Source of the DNA: Gammaproteobacteria bacterium
Lineage (GTDB): Bacteria; Pseudomonadota; Gammaproteobacteria; Eutrophobiales; Eutrophobiaceae
Reading direction: 5' to 3'
Length of the DNA stretch: 64,000 nt
Assembly: GCA_965198875.1 (NCBI GenBank)
Contig: CBDAPU010000001.1
Location: 1,544,996 to 1,608,995 of the forward strand
The notes beneath the pieces were generated by a model that had not been told where the DNA came from, did no database searches, and saw nothing but the letters and a program-made list of their open reading frames with translations. Within the stretch, counting starts at the first letter, position 1. Each line of letters starts with the position of its first letter. A program made the position numbers and the translations under genes. This document shows positions 7,768 to 8,209 of the stretch, piece by piece.

Positions 7768-7831
7768 CGTCTTTATTCGGGAAGCCTTATTGAATACGAC
7801 ACGCCAAACCCGAAATAGCAGGCCATAGTGA

Positions 7832-8209
7832 CCGGACGAGGCGGTAACTTATTTCCATGACCCATTCAGGGATCTCGCCGGCTCCTCGACCAACCTGGGC
7901 AAGGGCGGCAAACAAACCTGTCAAATGGACCCGGCGAACAGCGATGAGGCGCTACGGGAAGGGGCGGATAGGGTGATGGTGAAACCGGAGCTACCCTATC
8001 TGGACATCGTCCATCGCATCAAGCGCCAGTTTGGACTGCCGACCTTTGTGTATCACGTCAGTGGTGAGTACGCCATGCTAAAAGCCGCTGTGCAAAATGG
8101 TTGGCTGGACGAGAAAGCCATCGTGCTGGAGTCCCTGTTATCCTGCAAACGTGCCGGTGCAGATGGAACCCGCTTATTATGTAAAACGGCTTGCGCGCTG
8201 GCTGAATAG
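7832..8209 (+). pseudogene. hemB: 3' remnant (last ~125 codons) of porphobilinogen synthase hemB
   Basis: The in-frame translation ...[37 protein letters not shown]...[64 protein letters not shown]... aligns to the C-terminal third of HemB (FREAAGSS..YQM(N/D)P.NR.EA.RE..., MVKP...YLDIV, SGEYAM, KRAGAD). There is a short internal deletion and a divergent tail. The N-terminal ~200 codons are absent, because the TetR gene ends at 7767. Confidence 0.65.

Follow-up and report, generated by a model that had tools for sequence, protein, structure and literature searches.

The DNA described here is part of a 64-kb stretch (the window, by which we mean the whole stretch that was analysed). Between an accessory catabolic cluster closed by a TetR-family regulator gene and a conserved block that includes redoxin, hemJ and hemL genes lies an interval of 1.6 kb (7777-9351) that contains no intact gene. 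It holds the 3' remnants of two convergent genes—hemB on the plus strand (hemB') and a gene for a Peptidase_S8 protein on the minus strand (S8')—which together make up a contiguous block of ~1.3 kb. The features are collected in Table 1.

Table 1. Features of the 7777-9351 interval and of the genes on both sides of it, in window coordinates.
Feature	Coordinates	Strand	Remarks
Accessory catabolic cluster	97-6972		Glyoxalase; 2-oxoacid dehydrogenase E2, E1-beta and E1-alpha; Rieske oxygenase alpha subunit; two SDRs
TetR-family regulator gene	7111-7767	+	Intact; last gene of the left catabolic cluster; PF00440, 45 bits
Left breakpoint	7776/7777		Nucleotide similarity with the closest relative at its TetR locus ends here
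Unassigned 76 nt	7777-7852		TAG TGA at 7826-7831 in the hemB frame
hemB relic, main part	7853-8171	+	Corresponds to P. aeruginosa ALAD residues 210 to ~316; in-frame loss of 21 nt at 7957/7958
94-aa ATG ORF in the hemB relic (public protein P0059)	7925-8209	+	Unlikely to be a genuine gene
hemB relic, last 16 codons and natural TAA stop	8172-8222	+	Out of frame through a 2-nt deletion
Spacer between the convergent relics (208 nt)	8223-8430		No family or Rfam match; no convincing terminator
S8 relic	8431-9071	-	C-terminal ~210 codons of a Peptidase_S8 protein of ~816 aa, non-catalytic region; found by phmmer and tblastn
Unassigned stretch before the redoxin gene	9072-9351		Right synteny break in or near here
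Intact conserved block	9352-14168	+	TlpA/ResA-like redoxin, hemJ, tRNA-Leu (-), rubredoxin (-), thiD, thiE, hemL

The descent of the plus-strand relic from hemB is seen in several comparisons. The frame-2 translation of 7832-8206 matches the ALAD profile PF00490 over positions 195-305 of 317 (E=1.8e-39), and its 136 bits are well above the gathering score of 24.6 bits that marks ALAD descent. With the NCBIfam porphobilinogen synthase model NF006762 the same translation scores 147 bits (positions 201-311 of 327), about half of the 297-bit cut-off for the full protein. Among solved structures, P. aeruginosa ALAD (1GZG/1B4K; 337 residues) aligns with the relic over its residues 210-333 (E=1.6e-41), and the relic shares with HemB proteins the motifs MVKP, VSGEYAM and KRAGAD. 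A tblastn search of the 64-kb window with full-length E. coli and P. aeruginosa HemB gave 7853-8167 as the sole match and no other parts of hemB.

What is left is the last ~125 codons; the N-terminal ~209, and with them that portion of the (alpha/beta)8 barrel, are absent. The sequence-only reading had put the loss at ~200 codons from the letters, and the Pfam, NCBIfam, tblastn and structure comparisons bear it out. The match to the profile is partial, and the full-length ALAD domain of ~320-340 residues is not there. Since the alignment to 1GZG begins at residue 210, the N-terminal metal-binding segment is lacking, and so is the consensus segment AYSAKYAS with its lysine; the only active-site lysine left is that of MVKP, which forms the Schiff base (K260 of the P. 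aeruginosa enzyme). The roles of the lysines and of the metal-binding residues are those given by published ALAD structures. No uninterrupted frame in the relic combines a start codon with the invariant residues of the family.

To map the lesions, the DNA of the relic was aligned with the 3' ends of two hemB genes on metagenome contigs. An in-frame deletion of 21 nt, or seven codons, lies between 7957 and 7958, and a 2-nt deletion near 8171/8172 puts the tail out of frame. Read in the other frame, 8172-8222 encodes 16 residues of a normal HemB C-terminus (consensus tyyakevarwlk; E=4e-4 at Z=1), and the natural stop codon is kept at 8220-8222. These positions refine several points of the sequence-only reading. 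The homology that it had placed at 7768/7832-8209 is real, with a detectable start at 7853 and a natural end at 8222; the internal deletion that it had put at ~8 residues exists and measures seven codons; and the last 15 residues, which it had called scrambled, are indeed abnormal in frame 2 because of a frameshift, the normal C-terminus being preserved in the other frame.

The substitutions show a loss of constraint. In an alignment with 117 homologues drawn from the best HemB matches to the fragment, the relic deviates at 12 of the 72 near-invariant columns (at least 95% conserved); the homologues themselves deviate at a mean of 0.68 of these columns, with four or fewer deviations in 116 of the 117 and nine in the remaining one. 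The highest identity of the relic to any homologue is 73.6%, compared with a median nearest-neighbour identity of 91.7% (minimum 80%) among the homologues. Given the number of deviations and the low top identity, the relic is a pseudogene that has been free of constraint for some time. The core at 7853-8171 has no in-frame stop, and the decay is therefore moderate rather than extreme. On this evidence the hemB stretch is very probably what decay has left of the last third of the gene, without function and with no enzymatic role.

The possibility that hemB homology reaches back to the TetR stop was considered and rejected. With 7777-7852 added to the core, the HemB HMM score is 201.7 against 200.8 for the core by itself, in effect no gain, and 677 of 1000 shuffles did as well or better; scored alone, the segment gives E of about 0.05-0.1. 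An extension had been suggested by two features: the residues IREAL at 7774-7788 in the hemB frame are collinear with the HemB motif AIREAL, the codon for I belonging partly to the homology with TetR loci, and the TAG TGA pair could derive from Tyr and Ser codons.

Broken hemB genes were also met elsewhere. On the metagenome contig L084 (ENA ERZ23486780), hemB at 3611-4405 is without roughly residues 77-173, and the parts encoding residues 10-76 and 174-336 are about 100 nt apart; this gene is either a natural pseudogene or an assembly defect. Many public entries named HemB (among them P0010, P0015, P0018, P0067, P0077 and P0109) are 188-190 aa long, come from long contigs and share an internal start (MNDETVEVL...)—they probably arise where an assembly is broken or frameshifted and the gene caller begins anew from a Leu codon inside the gene, and are not a real short isoform.

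The second relic, which the sequence-only reading had missed, came to light when the minus-strand ORF at 8661-9059 (132 aa) was put through an exhaustive HMMER search and matched proteins of ~800-850 residues. The best phmmer match was to residues 616-720 of P0242 (E=1.4e-24). In a tblastn comparison (E=3e-47), residues 600-720 of that protein fall on 9065-8703 in frame -3, and residues 724-809 follow on 8694-8452 in frame -2. The relic is 47-57% identical to residues 600-809 of P0242, which belongs with P0243-P0246 to a group of Peptidase_S8 proteins that have a long non-catalytic C-terminal region. It differs from them in having a frameshift near 8695-8703, a deletion of five codons and no stop codon, the frame reading through the likely natural end (...WIF) at about 8431, as well as in lacking the catalytic domain, of which no part was found anywhere in the 64-kb window. 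In P0242, P0243 and P0244 the Peptidase_S8 domain PF00082 covers about residues 93-464, so the relic, which spans residues 600-809 only, is not itself a match to that family.

No Pfam or NCBIfam model matched the C-terminal region of the S8 proteins, and the ORFs of the relic have no Pfam hit. When the S8 fragment was repaired and used as query in a word-indexed protein search, nothing matched, although the exhaustive HMMER search did find the relatives. Comparison of 8223-9351 by tblastx and blastn with all fetched loci and with the rest of the window gave no match, and the repeats, promoters, terminators and Rfam families looked for around the scar offered nothing informative. The ORFs at 8377-8664 and 8661-9059 should be annotated as an S8-peptidase pseudogene.

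On the left, the TetR gene is intact and ends where the sequence-only reading had put it, its stop codon occupying 7765-7767. The nearest TetR relatives share 94% (P0123), 82% and 80% amino-acid identity, with others lower; their alignment is conserved up to ...SLAPD, and the tails are variable beyond that point. The relative L081 allows the edge to be placed exactly: its positions 2-923 match window positions 6854-7776 at 84% nucleotide identity, and the two diverge after ...GCGTCTTTAT. Both L081 and L082 have, next to the TetR gene, a MaoC dehydratase gene that runs convergently and overlaps the TetR stop; the window lacks this gene.

Two further candidates were examined at this edge and set aside. 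No remnant of the relatives' MaoC gene was detected in 7777-9351. A chimeric TetR C-terminus derived from hemB DNA was rejected as well—TetR homology continues past the stop to 7776, and the L081 tail differs by a 1-nt indel. The window's TetR protein ends ...APDEGR and that of the 94%-identical relative ends ...APDKKPGVFI (window 7756-7776, L081 904-923). The 1-nt indel between window and L081 sits just before the breakpoint, so the last residues of TetR were re-written near the junction.

Together with TetR, the genes to its left (97-7767 in all) form a conserved catabolic module common to marine gammaproteobacterial contigs, at 51-94% amino-acid identity, with a GbcA-like oxygenase alpha subunit. 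A TARA scaffold (L086, 1-10672) shows the order E2, E1-beta, E1-alpha, Rieske alpha subunit, SDR, SDR, TetR at 51-88% amino-acid identity, and the alphaproteobacterial megaplasmids NZ_CP025614.1 and NZ_CP091852.1 carry the enzyme genes of the cluster in the same order at ~68% nucleotide identity. In metagenome contigs, TetR reaches 94% and E1-beta 84-88% amino-acid identity; the best values for redoxin, HemJ and HemL in the collections searched are 69-72% and about 73%. The left end of the cluster lies outside the 64-kb window. These comparisons show the left block to be an accessory catabolic module of patchy distribution, with its right border in this genome at 7776/7777, and the patchy distribution together with the plasmid copies suggests that the cluster is mobile.

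The block on the right is unbroken in the window, and the order redoxin-hemJ-(rubredoxin)-thiD-thiE-hemL recurs widely among the loci sampled. Profiles agree with the identification of hemJ and hemL as genes near the relic: hemJ matches PF03653 and scores 126 bits with TIGR00701, just below its 138-bit cut-off, and hemL scores 606 bits with TIGR00713, whose cut-off is 527 bits. The nearest relatives (L011, L017 and L087), at 64-71% amino-acid identity, carry argC on the upstream side of the redoxin gene; L011 has a flavodoxin-like gene between the two, and erpA, anmK and tyrS follow further upstream. None of argC, erpA, anmK and the flavodoxin-like gene is in the window. No relatives above ~75% amino-acid identity in housekeeping genes were found (the best HemJ in the species-representative collection reaches 72%), and a search of JGI metagenomes with the redoxin as query for closer ones gave 69% as its best match.

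Whether hemB belongs to this neighbourhood can be judged from 127 loci, of which 80 are genome loci centred on hemJ and 47 are metagenome loci centred on the redoxin gene. None of the 127 has hemB within 10 kb, and the fetched flanks of these loci and of the TetR loci contain neither hemB nor an S8 homologue. With no hemB at any of these loci and the block intact, that hemB' lies near hemJ and hemL looks like a coincidence as far as the sampled relatives show. Synteny thus breaks just upstream of the redoxin gene, yet not within a heme-gene neighbourhood. The sequence-only reading had seen here a junction at which such a neighbourhood was disrupted; the junction stands, and the disruption finds no support.

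Two additional features of the right side are worth recording. A sub-threshold Rfam match to sRNA-Xcc1 (RF02221) lies at 10625-10713 on the minus strand, with 38.7 bits (gathering score 53; E=2e-4) over the full length of the model; it sits in a gap of 550 nt between hemJ and the tRNA-Leu(CAA) gene at 10980-11064. In L011, L017 and L087, thiD comes directly after hemJ, with no tRNA gene or gap. An autotransporter beta-domain (PF03797, residues 62-309) fills nearly all of a plus-strand ORF of 332 aa just after hemL (14577-15575). No passenger domain is visible, and the ORF could be a truncated autotransporter or an outer-membrane protein made of the beta-domain only.

Taken together, 7853-8222 is very probably a dead remnant of hemB that, with S8', forms a scrap of another locus left in a rearrangement scar between the catabolic cluster and the redoxin-hemJ-thiD-thiE-hemL block. 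Rather than a heme operon cut in two, the locus appears to be a scar in which a piece of a third locus has remained. An older locus with hemB and the S8 gene in convergent orientation would once have been present; rearrangements, whether by insertion, replacement or deletion, would have removed the 5' parts of both genes; and the leftover hemB'-S8' scrap would then have decayed neutrally. This order of events is conjecture. As hemL and hemJ are intact, we infer that a working hemB lies elsewhere in the 2.41-Mb contig. The scrap itself may be resident, duplicated or foreign in origin, and the last two cases deserve to be weighed.

A partial duplication would have copied hemB'-S8' from an intact locus with the two genes in convergent order in the same genome, the copy being captured at the junction and then decaying. 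It may have served, for example, as filler in illegitimate recombination or break repair, and the verdict of a pseudogene would be unchanged. This origin accords with the need for a functional hemB elsewhere in any case, with the layout of the two pieces—3' ends of convergent genes in one contiguous block—and with the finding that neither relic is syntenic with either flank in relatives. We nevertheless hold it to be unlikely on balance, if well conceivable. Among the best 120 HemB matches to the fragment, P0059 (the ORF within the relic) is the only one from the same 2,413,925-nt contig, of which P0059, P0121 and P0122 are present in the collection searched; any resident HemB would therefore not be nearer to the relic than ~120 foreign ones, and this speaks against recent copying. 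The convergent adjacency of hemB and S8 was also not seen in the two hemB loci and three S8 loci examined.

The relics could also be the tattered edge of horizontally transferred DNA, in which case hemB' would come from the donor that supplied the catabolic cluster. The relatives of the left cluster share 75-94% amino-acid identity, against about 70% for the housekeeping block, the cluster is found on megaplasmids of another class, and hemB' abuts its last gene. Against this, the relatives examined all carry something else after TetR (the MaoC gene, a histidine kinase gene or an unidentified gene), and homology to the closest TetR relative stops at the TetR stop. Signs of transfer were also looked for around the junction: no integrase domain is present among the ORFs scanned in 1-21.8 kb, no repeats of note, flanking ones included, occur in 6800-11300, and GC content is 49-55% on both sides with no shift seen. 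A foreign source for the scrap is accordingly a rather improbable one.

It is very unlikely that the remnant is an artefact of assembly, with a contig that is chimeric here or a normal hemB broken by errors. Metagenome assemblies do yield broken hemB genes, for example the frameshifted one on L083 and the internally deleted one on L084, but sequencing errors do not give 12 substitutions of invariant residues together with a clean 21-nt deletion; the neighbouring gene has independent lesions, and it would take two separate mis-joins inside 1.6 kb. Still more doubtful is the idea that the relic is the only hemB-like sequence of the genome, the organism, with its intact hemL and hemJ, scavenging porphobilinogen or heme or using an unrelated, undescribed enzyme. 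Least credible of all is a real small protein made from the 94-aa ORF, a C-terminal piece of ALAD with a new role such as disturbing HemB oligomers: the ORF is open from its ATG and listed as a protein in public data, it still has the lysine of MVKP and the motif VSGEYAM, and it follows TetR on the same strand, no terminator being predicted between the two, but it spans just about a quarter of a TIM-barrel enzyme, takes its last 13 residues from the wrong frame after the frameshift, contains the seven-codon deletion and several of the 12 near-invariant deviations, shows no purine-rich Shine-Dalgarno motif among the 14 nt that precede its ATG (AACAAACCTGTCAA) and forms a single-member cluster, which gives no sign of conservation.

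A decayed scrap of another locus, caught between two blocks, thus remains our reading of the hemB and S8 remnants. It matters for little except annotation and the history of this part of the genome: the public entry P0059 should become a hemB pseudogene fragment, and the scar could, given the sequence of a close relative, be used to date or orient the rearrangement of the accessory cluster against the core genes. The relic would gain interest only if the genome has no other hemB.

The locus is an ordinary by-product of genome rearrangement. Gene remnants at the boundaries of accessory or rearranged DNA are a general and well-known feature of bacterial genomes. At the present junction no integrase, tRNA-flanked attachment site, direct repeats or IS element was found. 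The scar described above otherwise resembles such boundaries—decaying pieces of genes lie at a break in synteny, with an accessory cluster on one side and core genes on the other.
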